From NCBI GenBank assembly GCA_963976655.1, contig CAXBLB010000010.1, positions 32,725-96,724 on the forward strand: a stretch of 64,000 nt of DNA, written 5' to 3'. Below, in pieces: positions 1-16,081 of the stretch (within the stretch, counting starts at the first letter, position 1; every line of letters starts with the position of its first letter). The translations under genes and the position numbers were made by a program. The stretch comes from an uncultured Halieaceae bacterium. GTDB taxonomy: Bacteria > Pseudomonadota > Gammaproteobacteria > Pseudomonadales > Halieaceae. Under the pieces are notes generated by a model. The model was not told the DNA's origin, searched no databases, and saw nothing but the letters and a program-made list of their open reading frames with translations.

Positions 1-534
1 GACGTCATCCTGGTGGAGACAGTGGGCGTGGGGCAATCCGAGTACCAGGTGGCCAACATGGTGGATTTTTTCCTGGTACTCATGCTGCCCGGCGGTGGCG
101 ACGAGCTACAGGGCATCAAGAAAGGCATCATGGAGTTGGCGGACGCTCTGGTGATCAACAAGGCAGACGGGGAAAGCGCCAATCTGGCCACGTTGACCGA
201 GCGGCAGTACACCAGCGCCATGCACCTGCTGCGCCACACCAGTTTCTGGACCCCACGCGTTATGACCTGCTCCGCGCTCACCGGCGTGAATATTGATGCG
301 TTGTGGGGAATGCTGGTGGACTACTACTTTCAATCGCTTGAGCAGGGCGCCTTTGCTGCCAAGCGTGCGCAGCAGAACCGCGACTGGATGCACCAGTTGG
401 TGAATGAGATGTTACTGCTGAAGCTCTCGCAGAACAGCGCAATCAAGAACCTTCTGCCGGAACTTGAACGCGCCGTGGAGAACCAGGAGACGACCGCTTA
501 CGCGGCCGCCAGACGGATCATGGAGTTGTTTTAG
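1..534 (+). CDS. meaB: Methylmalonyl-CoA mutase-associated GTPase MeaB/ArgK, 5'-truncated by the window edge
   Basis: DVILVETVGVGQSE (switch/Walker B), GDELQGIKKGIMELAD and NKAD G4 motif typical of MeaB; frame is open from position 1. Confidence 0.9.
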   Translation, partial: DVILVETVGVGQSEYQVANMVDFFLVLMLPGGGDELQGIKKGIMELADALVINKADGESANLATLTERQYTSAMHLLRHTSFWTPRVMTCSALTGVNIDALWGMLVDYYFQSLEQGAFAAKRAQQNRDWMHQLVNEMLLLKLSQNSAIKNLLPELERAVENQETTAYAAARRIMELF

Positions 535-847
535 CAGGTGCTGGCGAATCCTGTTCGGGTGCAGGCGTTGTTTGCTTCTCGTTCAGGTTCTCATCCAGTG
601 CATCGGCGGTATCGCGCATGACAGCCTGCGTTTCCCGTTTGCTCTCCTGCATGATCTTTCGGGCCTCTTCGCGGCTCTCCTCGAGCCGTTCAGTCATCTC
701 CTCGGCGGTCTCTTCCACCTCGGTCAGCGCCTCCTGGTAGGTCTCGTCAACTTCTTCGCCTGCTTCTTCCATCGGCCCTTCGTTGAAATCACACGCAGTC
801 AAGGCGGTGACGACGGTAGCGGCGTACAATAGCTTGGTAAGACGCAT
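518..847 (-). CDS. Small acidic helical lipoprotein, probably stress-associated
   Basis: Signal peptide with lipobox LTAC, then EGPMEEAGEEVDE and an E/A-rich helical tail; RBS AGGGAG upstream. Confidence 0.7.
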   Translation of the reverse strand: MRLTKLLYAATVVTALTACDFNEGPMEEAGEEVDETYQEALTEVEETAEEMTERLEESREEARKIMQESKRETQAVMRDTADALDENLNEKQTTPAPEQDSPAPAKTTP

Positions 848-929
848 GAGTATTCTCCCTGTCGAATAAATCTTTCAGTGCCGGTGCCGGCCGGCACCGC
901 CGACCGCAATTGCCGTCAACCTGCGCATG

Positions 930-1508
930 TCACTGCCGGTTGCTCGCCACGAAAGGCCAGTTGACCATTTTCCAGAAGGCGTCGAGGTAGGCGCCTCTGT
1001 CGTTGCGGTGATCCAGATAGTAAGCGTGCTCCCAGACATCCACGGTCAGCAGTGGCTTTTTGGAGCCGTCGCGCACCGGCGTATCGGCATCGTCGGTGTT
1101 TACAATCTCAAGCTCGCCACTCGCGTTTTGTACCAGCCATGTCCAGCCGGAGCCGAAATTCGACTTAGCTTTGGCCGTGAACTTGTCCCTGAACTCCTGC
1201 ACGGAGCCAAAGGCAGCTTTGAGATCATCCGCTAGCGGTCCTCCCGGTTCTCCGCCACCGTCCGGGCTCAGGCAGTGCCAGAAAAACGTGTGATTCCACA
1301 CCTGTGCCGCATTGTTGAATACGCCGCCTGATTGCGTGCGAATCAACTCTTCCAGAGGCATATCGAGATCCTTCTTCTCCAGCGCCTTGTTCAGCTTTTT
1401 CACATAGCCGGCGTGATGCTTGCCGTAGTGATAGTCCAGAGTCTCCTTCGACATGTGCGGTTGCAGTGCATCCCGGGGGTACGGTAGATCGGGTAATTCA
1501 ATAGACAT
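930..1508 (-). CDS. sodB: Superoxide dismutase, Fe-type
   Basis: LPDLPY, HYGKHH, FNNAAQVWNHTFFW and DVWEHAYY metal-ligand motifs. Confidence 0.95.
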   Translation of the reverse strand: MSIELPDLPYPRDALQPHMSKETLDYHYGKHHAGYVKKLNKALEKKDLDMPLEELIRTQSGGVFNNAAQVWNHTFFWHCLSPDGGGEPGGPLADDLKAAFGSVQEFRDKFTAKAKSNFGSGWTWLVQNASGELEIVNTDDADTPVRDGSKKPLLTVDVWEHAYYLDHRNDRGAYLDAFWKMVNWPFVASNRQ

Positions 1509-1666
1509 GTGCGGTTCCTTGTATCATCAGACATATTCAGGGTTGAACATTGCTGGCCGGGTGCAGTTATGGCCTTCTACCATAGCACGCTGCCCTGCCA
1601 CTTGCTGTTTGTCATTGCAAACGATGACACCGGGGTGATCAGTGCCCACCGCCGGCAGGGTAGAAC

Positions 1667-2044
1667 TCAGGCAGCATCCTGTAGCCGATGCTTGAGCCAG
1701 TCGATATCGAGCTTGAGCGGATTGTCGATATATTTCTGTGGATTTTCGTTGATGTCCCGCAGATAGTCGGTCGACACCTTCCAGTCAATATCAGGCGCGT
1801 CCTTCCCCCGCGAAACAAGCTCCAGACGCTGGTTGTTGGCGCGAATCGTATAGTAGTCGTGGGGTGCATCCGGATCACTGGAGTAAACAGCCACACCGAA
1901 CTTCCTGCCCGCCGCCTGTTTGTCCATCATCGAAACGATATCCTTGATCAGCGGCTTGTCTCGCAGAGACACCAGAGCGTCGTTGATCACCTCCAGTGCT
2001 CCGAGAAAGAGAGCGTAGCTGTCATTGCTGGTATCGTTACTCAT
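1667..2044 (-). CDS. Hypothetical protein, about 125 aa, possible SCP2-like fold
   Basis: ATG at 2044 preceded by strong RBS AGAGGAGG; lies downstream of a perfect sigma54 promoter; fold guess is from the YYTIRANNQRLELVSRG..PDIDWKVS pattern only. Confidence 0.7.
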   Translation of the reverse strand: MSNDTSNDSYALFLGALEVINDALVSLRDKPLIKDIVSMMDKQAAGRKFGVAVYSSDPDAPHDYYTIRANNQRLELVSRGKDAPDIDWKVSTDYLRDINENPQKYIDNPLKLDIDWLKHRLQDAA

Positions 2045-2197
2045 GAATTTCCTCCTCTGCACTTCAATGCGTTCCACTCTGCTAAAAGCCAGCGGCGTAC
2101 ACGAGCCGGTGTCGAGGAACACTATTGGCTAACAGTTCCCCTGGTGGTAACCATAACCGACAACGATCTGGCTTTTTGACAGCAGTGGTGCATGTAC

Positions 2198-2213
2198 TGC
2201 AAGTGGCGTGCCA
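2198..2213 (-). promoter_or_regulatory. Sigma54 (-24/-12) promoter
   Basis: Minus strand reads TGGCACGCCACTTGCA, a perfect match to TGGCAC-N5-TTGCW; points to the 1667-2044 gene; a sigma54 activator gene is nearby. Confidence 0.8.
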
Positions 2214-2410
2214 GTGCCTTGAACGACGCGCTAGCGCCGGGCCACGGCCTGCCGCTTCGCGCAGGGCCTGCCAGCTCAACGCGCCGTACTGGAAGAATTT
2301 GCAGGTGCGGTGGTATTTTTTGCATGATGCGGCAGGAAAGCTGCCATTAGTGGTGTGGCGCAGATGCAAACAGCGCCGACTTATAGCTCTGATGGGCGCG
2401 CAATGGCGGC

Positions 2411-2426
2411 TGGCATGAATAGTGCT
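2411..2426 (+). promoter_or_regulatory. Probable sigma54 (-24/-12) promoter
   Basis: TGGCATGAATAGTGCT has GG-N10-GC with 2 mismatches to consensus, about 60 nt upstream of ORF 2488. Confidence 0.55.
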
Positions 2427-2487
2427 TTTTAAGGGTGAATGGTGATCTGCAAGAAGCGAGAGGCATTGGCAAGGACGGTCAGGTTAG

Positions 2488-2754
2488 ATGAGTGAGGAAG
2501 ATTTCCGAACAGGCGTAGTATGGTCCCGCATGTCGCGCCTGCTATCACTGCGCGGGCTGCGGGGCCAGCAGCTGGGTACAGTGGGGTGGTGTGCGGTCAA
2601 TCTGTCCACCGGACGAATTGAGGCGGTGGAACTGCGCACTACCTGGCAGACTCTCACGATCCCCTGGCATCGGGTCACGCTGAATGGAGACGATGCAGAT
2701 CTCAGGTTGTTGGCGGAAAATGAGTCAGCTGGATCTCAAAAATCGTCGGACTGA
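2488..2754 (+). CDS. Small PRC-barrel-like protein
   Basis: G..LGTV..AVNLSTGRIEAVEL...LTIPWHRVTL resembles the PRC-barrel pattern; start uncertain (2488 or 2530). Confidence 0.5.
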   Translation: MSEEDFRTGVVWSRMSRLLSLRGLRGQQLGTVGWCAVNLSTGRIEAVELRTTWQTLTIPWHRVTLNGDDADLRLLAENESAGSQKSSD

Positions 2755-4100
2755 GACTCTTTGGCGTATTCTTTCAAGCGGTTGTAGAGTGTTTTCAGGC
2801 TGATCCCGAGGATATCGGCGGCGGCCTGCTTGTCGTCGCCAGTGTGCTCGAGCGTAGAGGTGATCAGGCGGTGCTCCATCTCGGCGATGCTCGTGCCGAC
2901 AGGTACTGCGATGAGCACATCGTCATGCTCCAGGCTGGCGGACTGATTGTCGATGGCAGACCGTAGTTCGTGATCTATAACCTCTTCCGACAGAATATAG
3001 GCGCGTTCAACCAGGTGCTTGAGTTCGCGTACATTACCAGGCCATGAGTGACGCCTCAGGGCGTCGAGAGCGGCCTCGGAAAAAGCCAGGGAGGTGGCGT
3101 GCTTCTCGTTCAATTCCCGCAGAAAGTGCTGTGCCAGGCCTTCAATATCCGCACCGCGACGTCGCAGTGGCGGCACCTTGAGAGGAAACTGCGCCAGGCG
3201 GTAGTAAACGTCTTCGCGCAATGAGCCTTCCCGCACCGCGTCTTCGGGCGAGCGGTTGCAGGCAGAGATGATCCTCACGTCGACATCAATGTCTGTGTCC
3301 GCTCCGAGCCGGCGCAGTTTACGGCTTTCCAGTACGCGCAACAGCTTTGCCTGCAGGTCGATGTTCATCTCGGAAAACTCGTCCAGCAGCAAAGTGCCTC
3401 CCGATGCCCGCTCGAAGTGGCCCTGATGCCTTCGGGCGGCGCCGCTGAAAGCGCCTTTCTCGTGTCCGAACAGTTCGCTTTCGGCCAGGTTTTCAGGCAC
3501 TGCGGCACAGTTGAATGCCACAAAGGGCCCATCGTGTCGCGCCGAGAGCATGTGCAGTGTTTGCGCTACAAGCTCCTTTCCTGTGCCACTCTCGCCCATC
3601 ACCATGACACTCGCCTCGCTCTGCGCCACTTTGCGCAACTGGCGGTACAGCTTGCGCATGCCTCGCGAGCTGCCGCGCAACATGCCGAACTGATCGATGC
3701 CACAATCGCTGGAGGTGGCCGGTTTACATTGCTCACTCGCAAATTCAGCCGCCATATCCTTCAGCAGTGGTCGAATGTTTGCCGGCTCAAGGGGCTTGCA
3801 GAAATAGTAGCTTGCACCACGCCTTATGGCGTCATCGGCAACTCCCGGTTCGTCCACGCTGACCATTACAAACAGCTCAGTGCTTTCCGACAGACTGGCT
3901 TCTGAGGGTGCAAAAACAGCGTGGTTGTCCGGGCAGTCGAGGTCCAGAAAAATCAGGTCAAACTGTTCCAGCGGCCCGCTTTCACTAGCCTGCTCAAGGC
4001 CGCCCGCGACCAATGTTTTGAAGCCGCAGGACTCGACAACCTCGGCCAGTTGTTGTGCATGCTCTGCATCTGTGTCAAGGATCAGGCATTGGGGTTTCAA
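2736..4100 (-). CDS. Sigma54-dependent response regulator (NtrC/AtoC family: receiver, AAA+, Fis HTH)
   Basis: Receiver with FLDL phospho-Asp; GESGTGKE Walker A; GAFSGA loop; WPGNVREL; C-terminal AADILGISLKTLYNRL; TTG start. Confidence 0.93.
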   Translation of the reverse strand: MKPQCLILDTDAEHAQQLAEVVESCGFKTLVAGGLEQASESGPLEQFDLIFLDLDCPDNHAVFAPSEASLSESTELFVMVSVDEPGVADDAIRRGASYYFCKPLEPANIRPLLKDMAAEFASEQCKPATSSDCGIDQFGMLRGSSRGMRKLYRQLRKVAQSEASVMVMGESGTGKELVAQTLHMLSARHDGPFVAFNCAAVPENLAESELFGHEKGAFSGAARRHQGHFERASGGTLLLDEFSEMNIDLQAKLLRVLESRKLRRLGADTDIDVDVRIISACNRSPEDAVREGSLREDVYYRLAQFPLKVPPLRRRGADIEGLAQHFLRELNEKHATSLAFSEAALDALRRHSWPGNVRELKHLVERAYILSEEVIDHELRSAIDNQSASLEHDDVLIAVPVGTSIAEMEHRLITSTLEHTGDDKQAAADILGISLKTLYNRLKEYAKESQSDDF

Positions 4101-4250
4101 TTTGGGGTTCCCCCGAGAGTCATCAAAAGCGTGCTGTACGAAGCCGGCGTATTATTCATATTCAGCGCGCCGGATGCAATCTCTGTGCTGCCACCGAGGA
4201 GGCGCCGAAGCCTCACCCGGATGGTTGCGCCGTGTGGCAAGCGGGCGCGC

Positions 4251-5300
4251 TCACAGGCCGTACAGCCCGCGATATTCCGGGTCTTTCCCGGCGATCATTT
4301 CCGCAAGATCCACCATAACCCGGCATTGTTTCCAGGATGCATCGTCCTGCATCTTGCCCTCGACCATTACCGCGCCAGAACCGTCCGGCAACGCTTCCAG
4401 CACCCGACGGGCCCAGGCAACTTCATCGGGCGGCGGGCTGAACACACGCTTGGCGATATCAATTTGACTCGGGTGCAGCGACCAGGCACCTACGCAGCCC
4501 ATGAGAAACGCATTGCGAAACTGGTCTTCACAGCCCATCGGATCGTCGATCGCGCCGAAAGGACCGTAGAAGGGCAGTGCGCCCACAGCCACACACGCAT
4601 CCACCATGCGCGCCATCGTGTAGTGCCAGAGATCCTGTTGGTGCGTGGAACGTGGCGCGTCGGGCTCCGCCGGATCGGGATCGTTGCGCACCAGATAGCC
4701 CGGATGCCCCCCACCGATTCGGGTGGTTTTCATGCGGCGCGAGGCGGCCAGATCAGCGGGGCCCAGGCTCATGCCCTGAATGCGCGGGCTGGCGGCGGCG
4801 ATCTCTTCCACATTGGCAACACCCAGTGCGGTTTCCAGCAGACAATGCAGCAGTATCGGACGCTGTATTTGCCCGCGCGCCTCGAGTTGCGCCAGTAGCT
4901 GGTCGGCGTAGTGGACATCCCAGGGGCCCTGTATTTTGGGCAGCATGATGACATCGACCTTGTCACCAACCTCGGTCACGATACGGGTCACATCGTCGAG
5001 GAACCAGGGGCTGTCCAGGCTGTTCACACGCGTCCATAGCTGGGTATCGCCAAAATCATTGTCGCGCGCAACAGCAATGAACCCTTCACGCGCAGCTTCC
5101 TTGTTGTCGATGGCGATGGCGTCTTCCAGATTCCCGAGAATGATATCGACTTTGGCAGCAATACCCGGCGCTTTCTCTACCATTTTTGGGTTACTGGGAT
5201 CAAAGAAGTGGATCATGCGCGATGGCCTGACGGGTATGTCTTTCACGGGCTCGGGCGCGCCGATTGCCAGGGGGCGGAAAAAATCTCGTGGACTACGCAT
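4251..5300 (-). CDS. mcl: Malyl-CoA/beta-methylmalyl-CoA lyase, Chloroflexus-type (CitE superfamily)
   Basis: [49 protein letters not shown] and GKMQDDA match Chloroflexus aurantiacus Mcl as remembered; ATG at 5300 has a GGAG RBS. Confidence 0.85.
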
Positions 5301-5330
5301 GTCTGTGCTCCTGAAGCTCAAAAAACCGGA

Positions 5331-6305
5331 TCAATGGCTGTCAGCGCCGAGACGCTGACGATAATGGATATAGCAGTCAAAGGGGTCGCTGTCCTGTTCC
5401 GAGAGGGATGCCAGCAGATTTTTTTCGCCGCCCAGGCGGGCAATGCCCGCGCTGCCAAACTCGCTGCCCAGACGCTTGATGATCCAGCGAGCCTGGTGTT
5501 CGAGGCGTTTGGCTGCGACCGTGCCGCGCTCGATGAGTGAGGTGTGATGACTGTCAAGCGCATCAACCAGTGCTTCAATGCCGGTGTGCTGCGTGGCGCT
5601 GGTCGCCAGCACCGGTACCCGCCAGTTGCCATCGGCATGTTCCGTGGCCAGCGCAGCGGTGAATTCTGCCAGTGTGCGATCGGCTACCGCTCCCATATCG
5701 TACTTGTTCACCACCAGTACATGCGGTACTTCGAGAATTCCCGCTTTCAGCAACTGAATGCTGTCACCCGAGCCGGGCTGGGCGACGAAACAGGTTGTAT
5801 CACATAGCATGGAGACGTCTATCTCGCGTTGGCCCACGCCCACGGTCTCAACCAGTACCACATCGAAAGCCGTGAGCATCAACTGGCCCATCGGCCAGAC
5901 CTCGGCGCTCAGCCCGCCGAACTCGCCGCGGCTGGAGAGGGAGCGGATAAAGACTCCATCGTCCTGTGCGACCGCGTGCATTCTCAGGCGGTCGCCCAGC
6001 AATGCGCCCCCACTGATCGGGCTGGACGGGTCGACTGCCAGCACGCCGACGGTGCGACCTCGCTCACGCCACACCTGAATCAGTGCCGCGGTCAACGATG
6101 ATTTTCCCACGCCCGGTGGCCCGGTGATCCCGATCATGTGACTCTCCACCGGAATACCTCCGGCACGCACCGCATCGAGCAACTGCTGCGAGCTCTCCCG
6201 CTGTGCCGGTAGCCGGTTGTCCAGAATATTCAGCGCTCGCGCTAACGCGGCCCTGTCCCCGTGACGAATACGCGTCGCAAGCTCGGCGGTGGAGTGGTTC
6301 GACAT
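5331..6305 (-). CDS. meaB: Second MeaB-family GTPase, probable chaperone of the adjacent ethylmalonyl-CoA mutase
   Basis: GITGPPGVGKSS P-loop, AVDPSS, GALLGDRLRM, VETVGVGQ, VNKYD. Confidence 0.85.
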   Translation of the reverse strand: MSNHSTAELATRIRHGDRAALARALNILDNRLPAQRESSQQLLDAVRAGGIPVESHMIGITGPPGVGKSSLTAALIQVWRERGRTVGVLAVDPSSPISGGALLGDRLRMHAVAQDDGVFIRSLSSRGEFGGLSAEVWPMGQLMLTAFDVVLVETVGVGQREIDVSMLCDTTCFVAQPGSGDSIQLLKAGILEVPHVLVVNKYDMGAVADRTLAEFTAALATEHADGNWRVPVLATSATQHTGIEALVDALDSHHTSLIERGTVAAKRLEHQARWIIKRLGSEFGSAGIARLGGEKNLLASLSEQDSDPFDCYIHYRQRLGADSH

Positions 6306-6311
6306 GCTCGA

Positions 6312-8315
6312 CTAGCGGTCTGTGGCCAAGCCGCTGGCTTGTCGAATCACGTCGACAATGGTGTGCATGATGGCGTTCATATCCACATCTTTTGGCGTGA
6401 ATACCGCTTTCACGCCCTGGGAGCGCAGCGCTTCGGCATCGCTTTCAGGGATGATCCCGCCGATGACAATGGGCACCTCATCGGCATGAATGGCAGCCAG
6501 CTCCTTGCGGATATCTTCCACCAGGGCGAGATGGCTGCCGGACAGTACCGACAGCCCTATGAGGTGCACGCCTTCCTCCAGGGCGGCCCTGGCGATCTGT
6601 GCGGGCGTGAGACGTATCCCCTCGTAGACAATTTCAAAACCCGCGTCGCGCCCCTTGACTGCTATTTGCTCGGCGCCATTGCTGTGCCCATCAAGGCCGG
6701 GTTTGCCGATCAGCAGGCGCAGGGGACGACCGAGTTCCTCGCCCGTTGCGCTCACCCGCGCGCGCAGGACCTGCAACGGCTCACTGTCGTCCCCTTTGGA
6801 GCCCGCGATAGTGTCCACGCCGGTGGGTGCGCGGTATTCGCCGAAGACCTCGCGCAGCACTTCGCTCCATTCGCCGGTGGTCACACCCACACGGGCGCAG
6901 GCTATTGAAGCGGGCATGATGTTGTTACCGTCCAGGGCTGCGGCGCGCAGTTGCTTGAGTGCCTGATCGACATCGGCCTGCTCACGGGTTGCCCGAAACG
7001 CGCGCAGCGATGCAATCTGCTCCTCTTCGGCGCGCGCATCCACCCGCATGATGCCGGCATCAGTGCCTGCCGTCAGGGGAGATTCGGTCGTTTGCTGGTA
7101 ACAGTTGACGCCAACGATTTTCAGTTCGCCCAGCTCGATGTCGCGGAGCCGCTCGCTATGGCTGTGCACAAGTTCGCGCTTGACGTAGCCGCTGTCGATA
7201 CACTCAACCATGCCGCCACGTTCCGCCACGCGTGCCATTTCCGCTTCAGCGCCTGCCATCAGTTCCTGCACTTTAGCTTCTATCACCGGTGAGCCATCGA
7301 ATATGTCGCCGTACTCGAGCAAGTCTGTTTCCAGCGCCAGCACCTGTTGCATACGCAGCGCCCACTGTTGATCCCAGGGGCGCGGGAGCCCGAGCGCCTC
7401 GTTCCACGCCGGAAGCTGAATGGCGCGTGCGCGGGCATTTTTTGACAGTGTAACGGAGAGCATTTCCAGCACGATCCGCTGTACGTTGTTTTCCGGCTGG
7501 GATTCCGTGAGGCCCAGGGAATTGACCTGAACTCCGTAGCGAAAACGCCTCAGTTTCGGGTCTTCGACGCCGTAGCGTTCCGCTACCAGCGCGTTCCACA
7601 TGCGGGTGAACGCACGCAGCTTGCAGGTTTCCTCGATAAAGCGAATACCCGCATTCACAAAGAAGGAGATTCGACCCACCACGTTGTGGAAGCTCTCGGG
7701 ATCGATCTGGCCGGAGGCCTGTGCCGCGTCCAGAATGGCGGTGGCGGTGCACAGCGCATAGGCAAGTTCCTGCGTTGGCGTGGCACCCGCCTCCTGCAGA
7801 TGATAGCTGCAGATATTCGTGGGATTCCATTTGGGGATATTCTGTACAGTGTAGGCGATAAGGTCTGTGCTCAAACGCACAGAAGGCGCCGGCGGAAATA
7901 TGTAAGTCCCGCGCGACAGGTATTCTTTCAATATGTCGTTCTGCGTGGTTCCCTGGAGCTGGCTGGGATCCACTCCCTGCCGCTCGGCAACCGCGACATA
8001 CAGTGCGAGCAGCCAGGGGGCGGTGGCATTGATGGTCATGGACGTGTTCATCTGAGCCAGCGGTATCTGGTCGAAAAGCGCCTGCATGTCGCCGATGTGG
8101 CTGATGGGCACGCCTACCTTGCCCACTTCACCGCGAGCCAGTGGGTGATCGGAGTCATAACCTGTCTGGGTGGGCAGATCGAAGGCCACGGAGAGCCCGG
8201 TTTGACCCTTGCCAAGGTTCGTGCGGTAGAGTGCGTTGGATGCCCTGGCTGATGAGTGCCCGGAGTAGGTGCGCATCAACCAGGGTTGTTCGCGTTGGGG
8301 TGAATCCTGGTTCAC
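6312..8315 (-). CDS. ecm: Ethylmalonyl-CoA mutase (MeaA/Ecm), B12-dependent
   Basis: WLMRTYSGHS, LSVAFDLPTQTGYD, MNTSMTINATAPWL, QVNSLGLTE, and B12 motif GKPGLDGHSNGAE (MeaA-type); GTG at 8315 with an RBS just after the upstream stop. Confidence 0.9.
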   Translation of the reverse strand: MNQDSPQREQPWLMRTYSGHSSARASNALYRTNLGKGQTGLSVAFDLPTQTGYDSDHPLARGEVGKVGVPISHIGDMQALFDQIPLAQMNTSMTINATAPWLLALYVAVAERQGVDPSQLQGTTQNDILKEYLSRGTYIFPPAPSVRLSTDLIAYTVQNIPKWNPTNICSYHLQEAGATPTQELAYALCTATAILDAAQASGQIDPESFHNVVGRISFFVNAGIRFIEETCKLRAFTRMWNALVAERYGVEDPKLRRFRYGVQVNSLGLTESQPENNVQRIVLEMLSVTLSKNARARAIQLPAWNEALGLPRPWDQQWALRMQQVLALETDLLEYGDIFDGSPVIEAKVQELMAGAEAEMARVAERGGMVECIDSGYVKRELVHSHSERLRDIELGELKIVGVNCYQQTTESPLTAGTDAGIMRVDARAEEEQIASLRAFRATREQADVDQALKQLRAAALDGNNIMPASIACARVGVTTGEWSEVLREVFGEYRAPTGVDTIAGSKGDDSEPLQVLRARVSATGEELGRPLRLLIGKPGLDGHSNGAEQIAVKGRDAGFEIVYEGIRLTPAQIARAALEEGVHLIGLSVLSGSHLALVEDIRKELAAIHADEVPIVIGGIIPESDAEALRSQGVKAVFTPKDVDMNAIMHTIVDVIRQASGLATDR

Positions 8316-8325
8316 GGTGTTTCCC

Positions 8326-9501
8326 TCACGCTGGGCGGCGCCGGATGAGGAGGCGCCGTTCAATTTCGAAGATTTTGTCTGCGAGCTTCTCTTTACCCAG
8401 GCCCCGTTTGGAGTCTTCCTTGATAAAAAGATCTTCGCCATGCTTTTCAAGGGCGGCGGCGGCAGACAGATTTTTGACACCTATCAACTGCATGCTCACC
8501 ATCCCGAGCTGTTCTGCGCCGGGCACATCGTCGACCGCGAGAATGCGGCTGAGGGCGCCGATCGTATCGCCGGCGAATGCGGGTTGCGTGTGATAGCCCT
8601 CGTTGAAGCCGAGTTCCCAGAGAGCGTTCTCACTCACGTCGCGGCTCGCCAGACCCTCCAGCCAGGCAAACACCAGGCCACCGTAGACGATGGGTTCGCC
8701 GCTCATCTTCCCTGAAAGCCCGCTTGAGAACACGCGATCAAAGTGCAGCGGATGTGAGTTGCCCACCATATAGGTCAGTGCCATATGTTCTTCAGTGATG
8801 GTACGGCCATTGGCGTGCACGATAATCTCACCGGGCCGATAATCCTCAAACCAGGTATTGGGGCCGGTGAGCCCCGTGTGCACGGCACCCGCCGGCGGCT
8901 TGGGCAATTCCACCTGTGGCTCTGAAACCAGCGGAAATTCCACCTGCAGGGCGGCCGCAGGGGTTGTGGGTGGGCGATCGCCGCGCCAGGCGACAAAAAT
9001 CTTGCGCTCGTATTGCAGCACGATTTCGTCGCGCTGGTTGATAGAAACAGTCAGTATGCGCACGATGCCCGGCTTGTCCGGCCCCCGGTCCTTTCTTTCC
9101 AGCACACGGGTGAAGGCGCGCAGCGTGTCGCCGGCATACACCGGGCGCAGGAACTGCACCTGATAGTAACCGAGGTTGGCGATCGCCTTCTCGGAATCGT
9201 TCTGCACGCCGAGTGAGAGCGTGACGTTGAACACCATCTGCGGGCTGGCTGGAAGGTCGGCGAAACCCAGGGCCCGGGCATACTGCGCATTCAGGTATAG
9301 CGGGTTCGCCTGCATGAAGGTGCGCGCGAAGTCGAGCATATTGCTGGCAGTGAAAGTAAAGCCGCGAGGGTGTTCGAATTCCTGTCCCGGTTGCAGCTCG
9401 TCGAGGTAGCGACCGTACTGCGGGTGGCGCACCTTGCCGAGATCTATCGGCACATCCGGTGCGCGCTCTGCCTGTTCTCCCGGAGACAGCTTGATCTTCA
9501 T
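8326..9501 (-). CDS. mch: Double-MaoC (hotdog) hydratase, probable mesaconyl-CoA hydratase
   Basis: Two MaoC domains, IANLGY motif, TITEEHM resembling Mch TIEEAEHM, and position between mcd and ecm; ATG at 9501 follows a GGAG RBS. Confidence 0.7.
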   Translation of the reverse strand: MKIKLSPGEQAERAPDVPIDLGKVRHPQYGRYLDELQPGQEFEHPRGFTFTASNMLDFARTFMQANPLYLNAQYARALGFADLPASPQMVFNVTLSLGVQNDSEKAIANLGYYQVQFLRPVYAGDTLRAFTRVLERKDRGPDKPGIVRILTVSINQRDEIVLQYERKIFVAWRGDRPPTTPAAALQVEFPLVSEPQVELPKPPAGAVHTGLTGPNTWFEDYRPGEIIVHANGRTITEEHMALTYMVGNSHPLHFDRVFSSGLSGKMSGEPIVYGGLVFAWLEGLASRDVSENALWELGFNEGYHTQPAFAGDTIGALSRILAVDDVPGAEQLGMVSMQLIGVKNLSAAAALEKHGEDLFIKEDSKRGLGKEKLADKIFEIERRLLIRRRPA

Positions 9502-9512
9502 GCCATGTCTCC

Positions 9513-11195
9513 TCAGGCCGCCTGTTCGATTAACGCCCGGGTGATCACCTTGAGGGCCAGGGTTTCCTCGGCTCCCTCGAAGATGGACAGTACCCGCGCA
9601 TCCGCGTAGTAGCGACTCACGGGAGTCTCTTCGGCGTAGCCCATTCCCCCGTGAATCTGCAGCGCTTCGCGTGTCAGCCACTCGGCCGCGCGCCCGGCAA
9701 ACAGTTTGGCGGCGCTGGCTTCCATATCCCCGTCGCCCTTGTCCATCATGTCGGCTACGTCGTAGGTGATCTGGCGGCAGGCCAGAATCATCGCGGCCAT
9801 GCGTGCCAGCTTGACTCGAGTGAGCTGGTACTCGCCTATGGCCTGGCCGAACACAACGCGTTCGCTCGCGTAGGAAATCGCCCGCTCGAAGGCCGCTCGC
9901 ATCACTCCCACGGCGCGGGCCGCGGTCTGGATACGCCCTCCCGCAAAACCGGCCATTGCGGCGTAGAAGCCTTTGCCTTCGCCCTCCGGGCCACCCAGCA
10001 TATTTGCATCGGGCACAAAAAAATCATCGAAAAACAACTCAAAGGAATGCATGCCGCGATAGCCGATGGTTGCAATCGCCCGCCCGCTCAGCTTCCCGCC
10101 ATCCTCCTGGTTCACGCTGAGGGTGTGACCGCTACTGCTGGGCTTTTCCACCAGGAACATCGACAGACCGCGATGGCCGAGGCTCATATCCTGATCAGTG
10201 CGCGCTAGCACCATCAGCACGCCAGCCTTGCCGGCGAAAGTGCACCAGGTCTTGGCTCCATTGAGTAGCCAGCCGCCTTCGGCTGGGGTGGCTTTGAGGC
10301 GCACGCCCGCTACATCGGAACCGTAGTTGGGCTCGGTGACGGCCACCGCACAGAGCGGCTCGCCCACGGCGAGCTGCGGCAACCAGTGCCGCTTCTGCTC
10401 TTCCGTGCCGCCCTTGAGCAGGGCGCGCGCAAGAATCTCGGGGCGGGTTATCAGGCTGCCGGCCGCTCCCAGCGAGCCGCGGGACAGCTCTTCGGTCACC
10501 ACGATCATACCGAGAGTGTCTTCCTTGTCGTCCGCCTGCAGGCCACCGTAACTTTCGGGAATGGACAGCCCGAACAGGCCCATTTCCTTGAGCGGTTCAA
10601 GAATTGCGTCCGGTATGTCGAGATCCTCACGATGCACTTGTTCGGCCAGCGGCGCGACAACATCGTCCGCGAAGCGCCGGAAGGTGTCGCGCATCATGCT
10701 GTGGTGTTCGCCGAGCAGATCCGGACCGAGGTCGCCGTTGCGTTCGAGTATCTGTTGCCCCAGTAATTCCATGCTGTCGGCTGCGAGCTGCGCCTCGAGA
10801 AATGCGCTCGCGGGGCCGGCATCGGTAAGCTTGGCAATCTCATCGAGGGTGGTGCCATAGGCTGTCGGGCGCAGCCGCAGGCGGGCCAGGCTGGAGGATA
10901 CCGCTTCGGCGCAGAACAGCATGGCCAGACGCTCCACGAAGGCGTCCGGCTTGCTGGCCTGCAAACGTCTCGCGTGGTCGAGCAGAAACCGCGCCGCGGT
11001 GCATTCCGACCAGCTTACGGCGAGTTCGTAGGAGGCGAGCTGCTGGGCGTCGAGCAGTGCAGGGGAGACCTTGCCGTCCTGCAGGCTAGCCGCGCGAATA
11101 TGTGCCGCCGCGGCATCCAGCAGCGCATGGGCACTCGACAGTAGGGAGCCGGCCGAATCGAGCGGAAGCCCTTGTTCCGGGGAGACCTGGGTCAT
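9513..11195 (-). CDS. mcd: Methylsuccinyl-CoA dehydrogenase (long acyl-CoA dehydrogenase)
   Basis: ACAD motifs TEPNYGSD, IGYRGM, QIHGGMG, IFEGAEE; N-terminal extension of about 170 aa typical of Mcd; sits in the ecm operon. Confidence 0.8.
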   Translation of the reverse strand: MTQVSPEQGLPLDSAGSLLSSAHALLDAAAAHIRAASLQDGKVSPALLDAQQLASYELAVSWSECTAARFLLDHARRLQASKPDAFVERLAMLFCAEAVSSSLARLRLRPTAYGTTLDEIAKLTDAGPASAFLEAQLAADSMELLGQQILERNGDLGPDLLGEHHSMMRDTFRRFADDVVAPLAEQVHREDLDIPDAILEPLKEMGLFGLSIPESYGGLQADDKEDTLGMIVVTEELSRGSLGAAGSLITRPEILARALLKGGTEEQKRHWLPQLAVGEPLCAVAVTEPNYGSDVAGVRLKATPAEGGWLLNGAKTWCTFAGKAGVLMVLARTDQDMSLGHRGLSMFLVEKPSSSGHTLSVNQEDGGKLSGRAIATIGYRGMHSFELFFDDFFVPDANMLGGPEGEGKGFYAAMAGFAGGRIQTAARAVGVMRAAFERAISYASERVVFGQAIGEYQLTRVKLARMAAMILACRQITYDVADMMDKGDGDMEASAAKLFAGRAAEWLTREALQIHGGMGYAEETPVSRYYADARVLSIFEGAEETLALKVITRALIEQAA

Positions 11196-11440
11196 GCTGA
11201 GTCCTGTTGTCAGTAAAAAGCGCGGGAATCGTTGCCAATCGCTGGCAGGCGCGCCACCGTCTGGTTTAACGATTCAAACCGTCAATTTTATAGCGTGGCA
11301 CCGGCTTTAACAACCAGACACAGCCAGCGGTGCCCGAGCAAAACCTCGCAGCCAGCGTCACTGGCTTGCCGTTGGTGTTGTGCGGGCGGTATCCTTGCTG
11401 GCGTTTTTACGCGCCAGCCAGACTCACCCGAGGAAACTGC

Positions 11441-12313
11441 ATGAAAATCAGACCGCGTCGCTCCCTGTTGTATATGCCCGGTTCCAATCCCAGAGCGCTG
11501 GAAAAGGCGCGCACACTGGATGCCGATGGCCTTATTCTCGACATGGAAGACTCTGTTGCCCCCGACGCCAAGCAACTGGCCCGTGAGCAAATCGGCGCGG
11601 CGCTCGAGGCCGGCGGCTATGGCTACCGTGAACTCATGGTACGCATCAACGCTCTCGCAACAAGCTGGGGAAGCGATGACATTGCCGCGATAGCCGCCTT
11701 TCCGACCCAGCCGGATGCCGTACTGATTCCCAAGATCGATACGGCGACCGATGTGCAGGACGCGATAGCAGCGCTGGACGCAGCCGGCTGTCCCGCAAGT
11801 GTCGATGTATGGATCATGGCTGAAACGCCGGCTTGCATTCTCAACATCGCCGAGGTGGCCAGGGCGCATCCGCGCTTGAAAGGCATGGTGATGGGCACTT
11901 CCGATTTGTCCAAGGATACGCGTGTACGCCACACGCCTGACCGCCTGGGCTTTATCAGCGCATTGAATCTGTGTGTCTATGCGGCGCGGGCCAATGGGCT
12001 GGATATTATTGACGGCGTGCAGCTTGATCTGGAGGACGATGCGTTGCTGGAAAAGTCCTGTGAGCAGGGCAGGGATCTCGGCTTCGATGGCAAAAGCCTC
12101 ATTCATCCGCGCCAGATCGCCGCCGCCAACGCGGTATTTGCGCCGAACGAGGACGAGGTTGCCGCGGCGCGCGAAATTATCGCTGCATTTGAGGCCGCCC
12201 AGGCCGAAGGCAAGGGCGTGGTGGTTGTCAAAGGGCGCCTGGTGGAAAATCTGCACGTTGAAATGGCGCAGCGCCAGCTCGCGCTCGCCGAGGCCGTAGA
12301 GCGCTCGCGCTAG
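11441..12313 (+). CDS. mcl2: (3S)-malyl-CoA thioesterase Mcl2 (CitE family)
   Basis: RSLLYMPGSN.RALEKA, DMEDSV, MVMGTSDL, GRDLGFDGKSLIHP and VENLH resemble Rhodobacter Mcl2; ATG at 11441 follows an AGGA RBS. Confidence 0.75.
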   Translation: MKIRPRRSLLYMPGSNPRALEKARTLDADGLILDMEDSVAPDAKQLAREQIGAALEAGGYGYRELMVRINALATSWGSDDIAAIAAFPTQPDAVLIPKIDTATDVQDAIAALDAAGCPASVDVWIMAETPACILNIAEVARAHPRLKGMVMGTSDLSKDTRVRHTPDRLGFISALNLCVYAARANGLDIIDGVQLDLEDDALLEKSCEQGRDLGFDGKSLIHPRQIAAANAVFAPNEDEVAAAREIIAAFEAAQAEGKGVVVVKGRLVENLHVEMAQRQLALAEAVERSR

Positions 12314-12376
12314 AGCCTCCCGGGGCGCCCCGGCGTGGTGGCACCGGCAGGGCCTCTGCCAAACTACGGGCGTCTT

Positions 12377-12893
12377 CTAGAGGTGTAGCGCGCGCAACGC
12401 CGGATCGGGCACACTGCAGTTCCACAAGCTGTTAAACAGTTCCAGGTACTGCTGCGCCCTGGCACGTGAATCCGGTTCGAAGAAGGCGCCGCTGGCGGCG
12501 CCCCCGGGGAGCGCAAGCACGCCGCTACGATCCCGGATCACGCAGTTTTCACCGTTCCATTGCGGGTGTTCGTCCAGTCTCTGTATATGCACCTTGCTCG
12601 GCAGGCGCCGCGACAGTTCCAGTAGCCGGTGGCCGCGAGTCACGATGCCCTGAATATCGCTTACCAGGATGCGGATGTCTGATTGCCGGCTGTCGCGGGC
12701 GAGGGCGCTCAGCGCGTCGGCAAGCCCCGCGGTATCGAAAGCCGTGTGATCGAGCTGGGGGCTCAGAATGCACACATGCCTGCGCGCGCTTGCGCACAGG
12801 GCGATAGCGTACTCATCAAAAGGTTGCGGGAAGTCGATGCCGTTGACGTAGTTTTGTTTGTCGCTGTCTGCGATATTCTCGGGTTCTGTCTCG

Positions 12894-12904
<11 letters not shown>
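12377..12904 (-). CDS. Conserved hypothetical protein downstream of roxA, possible degenerate PLD-like fold
   Basis: Overlaps the roxA stop; ARRHVCILSPQLD...IRILVSD...RDRSG pattern; no HKD motif. Confidence 0.65.

Positions 12905-16081
<3,177 letters not shown>

Follow-up and report, generated by a model that had tools for sequence, protein, structure and literature searches.

An ethylmalonyl-CoA pathway module in a Halieaceae bacterium with a solitary ccr and in its ccr-less relatives

The mcd-mch-ecm-meaB-mcl1 operon and the divergent mcl2

The genome assembly of an uncultured Halieaceae bacterium (GCA_963976655.1, 4.33 Mb, 99.96% complete) exhibits a compact set of six genes for the lower half of the ethylmalonyl-CoA (EMC) pathway. 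The public names of proteins almost identical to its own assign the organism to Halioglobus. These genes lie in a stretch of 64,000 nucleotides that we analysed as a whole and call the window (contig CAXBLB010000010.1, hereafter C10, positions 32725-96724). A minus-strand operon, mcd-mch-ecm-meaB-mcl1, spans window positions 4251-11195, and a CitE-family gene, mcl2, is divergent from it on the plus strand. The genes were checked by listing open reading frames (ORFs) and by profile searches (NCBIfam, Pfam and PDB). All six genes proposed by a first-pass annotation of the window were recovered, with starts trimmed relative to its maximal ORFs, and its assignment of them to the lower half of the pathway is borne out by their family and PDB matches. 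Many relatives keep the same module without ccr, the gene of crotonyl-CoA carboxylase/reductase, and this strain has a solitary ccr on another contig.

In the EMC pathway, (2S)-methylsuccinyl-CoA arises from (2R)-ethylmalonyl-CoA through Ecm and is turned into mesaconyl-CoA by Mcd; Mch then yields beta-methylmalyl-CoA, and Mcl1 produces glyoxylate and propionyl-CoA from it. Mcl1 also joins glyoxylate with acetyl-CoA, and the resulting malyl-CoA is hydrolysed to malate by Mcl2. Propionyl-CoA is taken to succinyl-CoA by propionyl-CoA carboxylase (Pcc), an epimerase (Epi) and methylmalonyl-CoA mutase (Mcm). The genes of the operon are separated by gaps of 11, 10, 6 and 30 nt, and a Shine-Dalgarno-like sequence is found 5' of every trimmed start.

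The first gene of the operon, mcd (9513-11195, minus strand), encodes a (2S)-methylsuccinyl-CoA dehydrogenase of 560 aa, about 160 of which form an N-terminal extension. Its best PDB match is the (2S)-methylsuccinyl-CoA dehydrogenase 8ciw (604 bits; 6es9 scores 313 bits). The alignment to the solved enzymes starts at residue 13, and the protein therefore has the N-terminal extension that defines Mcd. According to the residue map available for the Paracoccus enzyme (PMC5798300), it retains the equivalents of PdMCD R252, R376 and R421, assigned to the substrate carboxylate, and of the catalytic E535. The residues A285 and F287 of PdMCD correspond to V/V in the window Mcd and to I/I in the characterised Pseudomonas migulae enzyme (PMC10266731). 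The latter (8ciw) is the closest characterised Mcd, having in common with ours the extension, the three arginines and a branched aliphatic methyl pocket; it exhibits a notable side activity on succinyl-CoA (PMC10266731).

The next gene, mch (8326-9501, minus strand), encodes a 391-aa mesaconyl-CoA hydratase with two MaoC hot-dog domains. It matches Pfam PF19315 'Mesaconyl-CoA hydratase' with 66 bits (cut-off 26.5), and its PDB matches are 4e3e (148 bits) and the beta-methylmalyl-CoA dehydratase 8hgn (130 bits, residues 71-357), with both hot-dog domains aligned. The protein is 68-71% identical to the product of the gene found between mcd and ecm in ccr-containing operons, and it is from the operon context that we infer its substrate specificity.

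The mutase gene ecm (6312-8315, minus strand) encodes a single chain of 667 aa with a fused B12 domain, and was identified through orthology combined with the residue map of methylmalonyl-CoA mutase (MCM). Its product shares 64-82% identity with mutases encoded next to ccr in at least four phyla (64-72% with those of Streptomyces, Rhodospirillales of the Alphaproteobacteria, Accumulibacter and Competibacteraceae), as against 37% with the Mcm of the same genome. On the NCBIfam Mcm model it scores 551 bits, under the cut-off of 876, the genome's own Mcm reaching 1291 bits. MCM residues Y89, Q197, R207, Y243 and H244 are kept, as expected for a carboxylated substrate, together with the DxHxxG cobalamin motif. 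Judged from its sequence, the window mutase is Ecm, distinct from Mcm. The following gene, meaB (5331-6305, minus strand), encodes the G-protein chaperone of the adjacent B12 mutase (TIGR00750, 256 bits with a cut-off of 241; Pfam MeaB, 250 bits). In the operons of Accumulibacter, Competibacteraceae and Propionivibrio, too, meaB comes after ecm.

The last gene of the operon, mcl1 (4251-5300, minus strand), encodes a 349-aa malyl-CoA/beta-methylmalyl-CoA lyase with a Pfam HpcH_HpaI match. Its scores are 509 bits with the Chloroflexus Mcl structures 4l7z/4l80, 504 bits with 6kin and only 213 bits with Rhodobacter Mcl1 (4l9y), which clearly marks it as a lyase of the Chloroflexus trifunctional type. 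An mcl1 of this type adjoins ccr or ecm in other lineages as well (loci L175, L028 and L048), some of them delta-proteobacterial, so that the mosaic is not unique to the present genome. The divergent mcl2 (11441-12313, plus strand) encodes a CitE/HpcH-family protein of 290 aa (Pfam HpcH_HpaI, 144 bits; PDB Mcl 4l9y, 144 bits; CLYBL 5vxc, 120 bits), a presumed malyl-CoA thioesterase. It faces mcd in every relative locus inspected. A homologue with 55% identity is found with mcl1 and ccr at L175, and publicly such proteins are named just 'CoA ester lyase'.

The divergent region between mcd and mcl2 is 245 nt long. A consensus scan gives a sigma-70-like promoter, TTGTTA-17-TAAAAT (11285-11313, minus strand), 90 nt upstream of mcd, in a region where such consensus matches are no more numerous than expected by chance. 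Its -10 element coincides with a conserved AATTTTA block, and just downstream of this element lies an inverted repeat, GGTTTAACGATTCAAACC (11263-11280, no strand), which is a candidate operator. The repeat and the flanking AATTTTA are kept in most of 9 aligned relatives. The window holds a single copy (0.06 expected), and no second exact copy exists in the genome; looser GTTTGA-N4-TCAAAC sites are found at about a dozen further genomic places. No cobalamin riboswitch or other known RNA was detected in window positions 1-16000 at E <= 0.1.

Control of the operon by sigma-54 was considered and rejected, as the sole perfect -24/-12 site points away from the operon and none is found upstream of mcd. 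That site, TGGCACGCCACTTGC (2199-2213, minus strand), is upstream of a small ORF (1667-2122) and of sodB. An orphan NtrC-type activator gene with a weak receiver domain (2736-4100) adjoins mcl1; we do not count it in the module because it is missing between the same genes in a related species, G175.

Distribution of the module and the solitary ccr

The family census comprised 201 Halieaceae species sampled evenly from 40 genera, and a class-level census comprised 400 species. An Mcd of the window type (at least 69% identity) was found full-length in 44 family genomes and as fragments in 4-5 more, about 48 of the 201. All 22 species of the window strain's genus have it, as do members of four other genera (5 in total). 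The whole module, with mcl2 divergent from mcd-mch-ecm-meaB-mcl1, was present in each of the 12 relative loci that were fetched, and in 9 of these a carboxylase-epi-mcm operon, described in the next section, is syntenic or within reach. The block of about 20 kb that holds the module and this operon is vertically inherited in Halioglobus and allied Halieaceae genera.

A second group of Mcd-like proteins (53-59% identity) was considered as a wider spread of the module and rejected, as its genes lie in another kind of cluster, which resembles one for beta-oxidation and includes a CoA-transferase gene. This acyl-CoA dehydrogenase (ACAD) paralogue, found in other Halieaceae genera (L113:5634-7334 in genome G080, and L111-L117), has the same N-terminal extension. 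Its neighbours encode two ACADs, a family III CoA-transferase, a short-chain dehydrogenase/reductase, thiolases, an enoyl-CoA hydratase and a TetR regulator.

Ccr was found in only one of the 201 family genomes, that of the window. With the strain's Ccr as query and all candidates scored, the count was 0 of 28, and nothing was found at E <= 1e-20 in 22 module-bearing genomes, three complete single-contig genomes among them. The sole match of this query was a domain resembling enoyl-CoA carboxylase/reductases (ECRs), at G080:C1:2878365-2879243 in an open frame of 1814 aa, which has the size and architecture expected of a propionyl-CoA synthase and belongs to a Halieaceae genus without the EMC module. 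At the class level, Ccr was found in 5 and Ecm in 4 of the 400 genomes; outside Halieaceae, Ecm was accompanied by Ccr in all three cases.

The nearest relatives of the module outside the family are the mcd-mch-ecm-meaB-ccr operons of Competibacteraceae, Accumulibacter, Propionivibrio, Hahellaceae and several gammaproteobacterial metagenome-assembled genomes (MAGs). These exhibit the same mcd-mch-ecm-meaB order and the same extended Mcd, with 63-75% identity. Their fifth gene is ccr; in Halieaceae a Chloroflexus-type mcl1 is fifth, the divergent mcl2 is added, and ccr is absent from the locus and, in the sampled relatives, from the whole genome. Given this arrangement, the module most simply descends from a ccr-containing operon in which ccr was lost. 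EMC operons had already been described in Competibacteraceae and Accumulibacter (PMC8956781, PMC12604563). The first-pass annotation, which named Alphaproteobacteria and Streptomyces as the groups where the route is best known, needs correcting here, as Competibacteraceae, Accumulibacter, Hahellaceae and several MAGs with EMC operons belong to Gammaproteobacteria as defined by GTDB. The Halieaceae module has been kept in many ccr-less species, apparently under selection. Its presence in about 48 species without ccr also means that its conserved role must be independent of Ccr.

The Ccr of the window strain is encoded on another contig, C4 (118062-119312), and scores 593 bits on TIGR01751 (cut-off 378). 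At the positions of AntE Ala182 and Val350, it has the pocket pair Leu/Phe. The same pair is found in all 61 ecm-linked and all 8 mcd-linked Ccrs of our set, and the pocket of Streptomyces AntE-like enzymes is Ala/Val, Ala/Cys or Leu/Gly. The closest homologues (64-71% identity) are solitary ECRs from Actinomycetota, Planctomycetota and Chloroflexota; identity is just 57-60% to the ccr products inside gammaproteobacterial EMC operons. In a FastTree phylogeny of 131 sequences, in which some branches are long, the strain's own among them (0.3), the enzyme falls within a clade of 28-44 ECRs with SH-like support of 95-99, separate from the proteobacterial EMC-linked clade. For none of these 28-44 ECRs does an ecm or mcd gene lie within ±8 kb. 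The closest solved structure, and a member of the same well-supported clade, is AntE (PDB 4y0k; 645 bits, about 67% identity), whose Ala/Val pocket is widened for longer enoyl-CoAs, unlike the Leu/Phe pocket of our enzyme, which has no polyketide synthase (PKS) neighbours.

The strain's ccr lies at a synteny breakpoint. The right flank is collinear with species G175 (67-86% identity), and counterparts of ccr and of its left-flank ORFs are absent from the eight closest species. Left of ccr (C4:114863-118028) are three strain-specific ORFs of 361, 468 and 226 aa with a GC content of 56-57%; the two larger ones have no NCBIfam match. Conserved neighbours common to ccr and its closest homologues were looked for and none was found, and its flanks hold neither PKS nor other client genes. 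Two further ideas were rejected: that ccr is compositionally foreign (GC at third codon positions, GC3, is 0.75, compared with 0.73 ± 0.06 for the genome, only the left neighbours being low in GC), and that it shares a regulon with the operon through GGTTTAACGATTCAAACC (the exact motif occurs only at the operon, with no site near ccr). We infer that this species probably gained a crotonyl-CoA-type Ccr laterally; it is possible that ccr was anciently present and was repeatedly lost in the relatives.

With this Ccr, the gene complement parallels that of classical EMC organisms. Cereibacter (Rhodobacter) sphaeroides, Methylorubrum extorquens and Paracoccus denitrificans exhibit the same set of Ccr, Epi, Ecm, Mcd, Mch, Mcl1, Mcl2 (a presumed one in the window strain), Pcc and Mcm. 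The window strain differs from the alphaproteobacterial pathway in its Chloroflexus-type Mcl1, in an Mcd without Ala285/Phe287, in a Ccr of another clade (48-50% identical to alphaproteobacterial Ccrs) and in an atypical carboxylase. The statement of the first-pass annotation that the genes are usually scattered in Streptomyces has to be abandoned, since a compact operon, ccr1-ecm-mml-mch-mcd, is known there (PMC4606968). That actinomycete operon covers the same conversions, with 64-67% identity between the Ecm proteins, but its gene order differs; the Mcd matches in Streptomyces cover the ACAD core only (about 380 aa, 36-38% identity), the lyases are 31-34% identical, and the primary Streptomyces ccr product is 37-41% identical to the window strain's Ccr.

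The adjoining operon and the rest of the genome

Left of the module, at a distance of 3.7 kb, lies an operon that starts at C10:25034 and encodes in turn a carboxyltransferase, a biotin carboxylase with a biotin carboxyl carrier protein (BCCP) domain, an epimerase, Mcm and a second MeaB (ORF map of C10:18000-37000). The first two proteins form an atypical biotin-dependent acyl-CoA carboxylase (C10:25034-29637). The beta subunit (577 aa) scores about 300 bits to structures of PccB, the beta subunit of propionyl-CoA carboxylase (PCC), and is under every NCBIfam equivalog cut-off; the alpha subunit (895 aa) has a split ATP-grasp domain, a long linker and a BCCP domain. A canonical PccB was not recognised, all five carboxyltransferases of the genome being below the NCBIfam equivalog cut-offs. 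The epimerase gene (C10:29646-30026; 137 bits, cut-off 115) ends 2.7 kb left of the window start and is followed by mcm (C10:30090-32249; 1291 bits, cut-off 876) and by meaB2 (C10:32332-33189 by tblastn, 37% identical to the window MeaB). The last 177 codons of meaB2, encoding part of the MeaB GTPase of this operon, occupy window positions 1-534 on the plus strand. The carboxylase was considered as a module-specific partner and ruled out as specific evidence, as its alpha subunit is present, at 71% identity or more, in 195 of the 201 family genomes, with or without the module.

The first-pass annotation had placed ccr and the epimerase gene outside the window, which is correct, and had proposed a search of the rest of the genome for ccr, epi, phaAB, pccAB and mcm and for an absence of the glyoxylate shunt. 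Ccr, epimerase and Mcm were all found (593, 137 and 1291 bits), together with a carboxylase that is PCC-like but atypical. The shunt is not absent: a Pseudomonas-type isocitrate lyase (NF005074, 1066 bits) and malate synthase G (1258 bits) make it complete. The contrast drawn between an EMC pathway used here instead of the shunt and the metabolism of other Gammaproteobacteria therefore fails, and the EMC pathway would be a second route, not a replacement. The combination that the first-pass annotation named as refuting its proposal, a complete shunt without any ccr, is not what the genome has, since ccr is present. The coexistence of the EMC pathway and the glyoxylate cycle is known in Paracoccus denitrificans (PMC10370305).

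The abundance of lipid-catabolic genes noticed in the window extends to the whole genome, which exhibits more than 30 ACAD paralogues and many other beta-oxidation paralogues. The upper steps of the EMC pathway are catalysed by enzymes of a generic kind (beta-ketothiolase, acetoacetyl-CoA reductase and crotonase). Contig C9 (90237-93336) encodes one more B12-dependent acyl-CoA mutase, the third of the genome, which is split into a large and a small subunit and accompanied by a MeaB of its own. At the positions of MCM Y89, Q197, R207, Y243 and H244 it has Val, Val, Val, Ala and Gln, residues that make a non-carboxylated acyl-CoA its probable substrate. Genes for a cytochrome P450 and a family III CoA-transferase are found in the vicinity.

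On the other side of the module, directly 3' of mcl2 (12377-14054), a DUF7931 gene and a JmjC/cupin (ROXA-like) gene are found, as in most relatives of the same genus. The ORF after the JmjC/cupin gene (14041-15411) encodes a putative adenylosuccinate lyase. None of these three genes has an evident tie to the module.

Source of ethylmalonyl-CoA and role of the module

The Ccr with its Leu/Phe pocket, together with the module, gives this strain the full EMC gene set from Ccr onwards (Ccr, Epi, Ecm, Mcd, Mch, Mcl1, the presumed Mcl2, the Pcc-like carboxylase and Mcm). Ccr would make (2S)-ethylmalonyl-CoA from crotonyl-CoA, and a complete EMC pathway would operate alongside the glyoxylate cycle as an extra, CO2-co-fixing route for the carbon of acetyl-CoA, 3-hydroxybutyrate or fatty acids. 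Such a route would have been assembled when a foreign ccr joined the older module. In the relatives, ethylmalonyl-CoA may instead arise from ATP-dependent carboxylation of butyryl-CoA, the final intermediate of even-chain beta-oxidation, the candidate enzyme being the adjoining PCC-like carboxylase. The module would then give glyoxylate and propionyl-CoA, either as anaplerosis or as salvage of a side-product. Taken as a whole, this reading, an EMC module to which the strain added a Ccr and which has a Ccr-free input in the relatives, appears to us reasonably probable.

The last part of it is more tentative. That Halioglobus and allied Halieaceae run a Ccr-free version of the pathway, in which a biotin-dependent carboxylase acting on butyryl-CoA feeds ecm-mcd-mch-mcl, is a conjecture to which we give limited credence, although butyryl-CoA carboxylation is our best guess for the input of the module. 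Acetyl-CoA carboxylase, PCC and actinobacterial acyl-CoA carboxylases are known to make ethylmalonyl-CoA from butyryl-CoA as a side or main activity (PMC6717113, PMC7835884), and butyryl-CoA carboxylation has been named as an alternative source of ethylmalonyl-CoA (PMC4606968).

Several observations weigh against this reading. The occurrence of the adjoining carboxylase regardless of the module means that it lends no specific support to the butyryl-CoA idea. In the window strain, ccr is unlinked to the operon and lacks its GGTTTAACGATTCAAACC motif; the Ccr clade includes polyketide extender-unit enzymes, and in Streptomyces tsukubaensis the related paralogue AllR failed to support growth on acetate (PMC4606968). 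The GC3 of ccr is normal and gives no sign of a recent transfer. The full glyoxylate shunt, finally, puts the physiological need for the module in doubt. The first-pass annotation had proposed that this organism assimilates C2 units with CO2 co-fixation through Ccr; the strain indeed has a Ccr, but the proposal leaves the existence of the operon unexplained, with relatives that have no ccr and a ccr in this strain that is unlinked and of another clade.

Much of the same evidence can be turned into a different explanation, according to which the window strain, like its relatives, has a module that does not depend on Ccr. The task of the operon would be confined to the salvage or assimilation of ethylmalonyl-CoA from butyryl-CoA carboxylation, and the solitary ccr would supply alkylmalonyl-CoA for a lipid or secondary metabolite, or serve for crotonyl-CoA reduction. 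The persistence of the operon in about 48 species without ccr, the position of ccr at a synteny break beside strain-specific ORFs and away from any GGTTTAACGATTCAAACC, the antimycin biosynthesis enzyme AntE as its closest solved relative, and the inability of a secondary-metabolism ECR to drive the EMC pathway in S. tsukubaensis all agree with this. The pocket does not: it is Leu/Phe, as in all EMC-linked Ccrs of the set, and not the Ala/Val of the AntE type. Nor do PKS or client genes flank ccr, and any ethylmalonyl-CoA made by Ccr would reach the epimerase and Ecm in the same cell. We regard this explanation as rather unlikely.

It is improbable that the module serves the catabolism of external C5-dicarboxylates (ethylmalonate, methylsuccinate or mesaconate), which a transferase or ligase from outside the module would convert to CoA esters. 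Such a function would not require Ccr, the closest solved Mcd is from a Pseudomonas (PMC10266731), and saprophytic bacteria possess methylsuccinate utilisation clusters, suggesting that such acids occur in the environment (PMC12290011). The described methylsuccinate/itaconate cluster, however, is built differently, with an itaconate CoA-transferase, an MmgE/PrpD isomerase and a different, C4-ester-specific ACAD beside the lyase (PMC12290011). Neither a CoA-transferase nor an MmgE/PrpD gene was found in or beside the module across the 12 loci, and no CoA-transferase, ligase or transporter is conserved with it there. The nearest outgroup operons carry ccr in the place of mcl1, indicating EMC ancestry, and the invariant ecm-meaB pair makes sense only with ethylmalonyl-CoA as the entry compound.

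A partial 3-hydroxypropionate bi-cycle, in which Mcl would condense glyoxylate (for instance from algal glycolate) with propionyl-CoA to beta-methylmalyl-CoA, is very improbable. Mcl1 is of the Chloroflexus trifunctional type, the 1814-aa frame resembling propionyl-CoA synthase (Pcs) exists in another Halieaceae genome (G080), and bi-cycle genes have reportedly been found in marine NOR5/OM60 isolates. But the window genome has neither a second Mch/Meh-type hydratase (there is a single match) nor an ECR frame of Pcs size; no mesaconyl-CoA transferase (Mct) was seen in or near the module, no search having been directed at Mct specifically; and the bi-cycle has no role for Ecm or Mcd, a reverse Mcd reaction being implausible in an aerobe. 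That the mutase is a second Mcm or has some other specificity, within a generic acyl-CoA degradation cluster, is scarcely credible: NCBIfam has no Ecm-specific model, leaving Mcm as the best one, and PDB has no Ecm structure, but the score falls far short of the Mcm cut-off that the true Mcm passes, the identity is much higher to ccr-adjacent mutases than to Mcm, and the partner genes are exactly those that use the product of Ecm.

Halieaceae, also known as the OM60/NOR5 clade, are abundant in coastal bacterioplankton and respond to blooms of algae. In the literature that we searched, we found no link of ethylmalonyl-CoA with Halieaceae, OM60/NOR5 or Halioglobus, and a family-wide genomic study mentions the glyoxylate cycle only (PMC10100682). 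An EMC gene cluster in a gammaproteobacterium is already known. What is new is that a lower-EMC module, inherited vertically, is kept without Ccr in a quarter of the family, and that one species has completed it with a Ccr of a foreign clade.

In a quarter of the sampled species, a B12-dependent module of five enzymes is thus retained although the enzyme behind its only known input is missing. Central metabolism in these organisms is then fed from a second natural source of ethylmalonyl-CoA, or else the module has a job yet undescribed. If the Ccr-free route is real, it would be an undescribed natural variant of central carbon assimilation in abundant coastal bacterioplankton, and the window strain would represent a natural 'upgrade' of it by means of a foreign Ccr. 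The strain and its ccr-less sister species form a natural experiment. In marine metagenomes, the EMC pathway is often called present on the basis of ecm, mcd or mcl alone, and the persistence of these genes without ccr in Halieaceae bears on the CO2 co-assimilation and the B12 demand that are inferred from such data.

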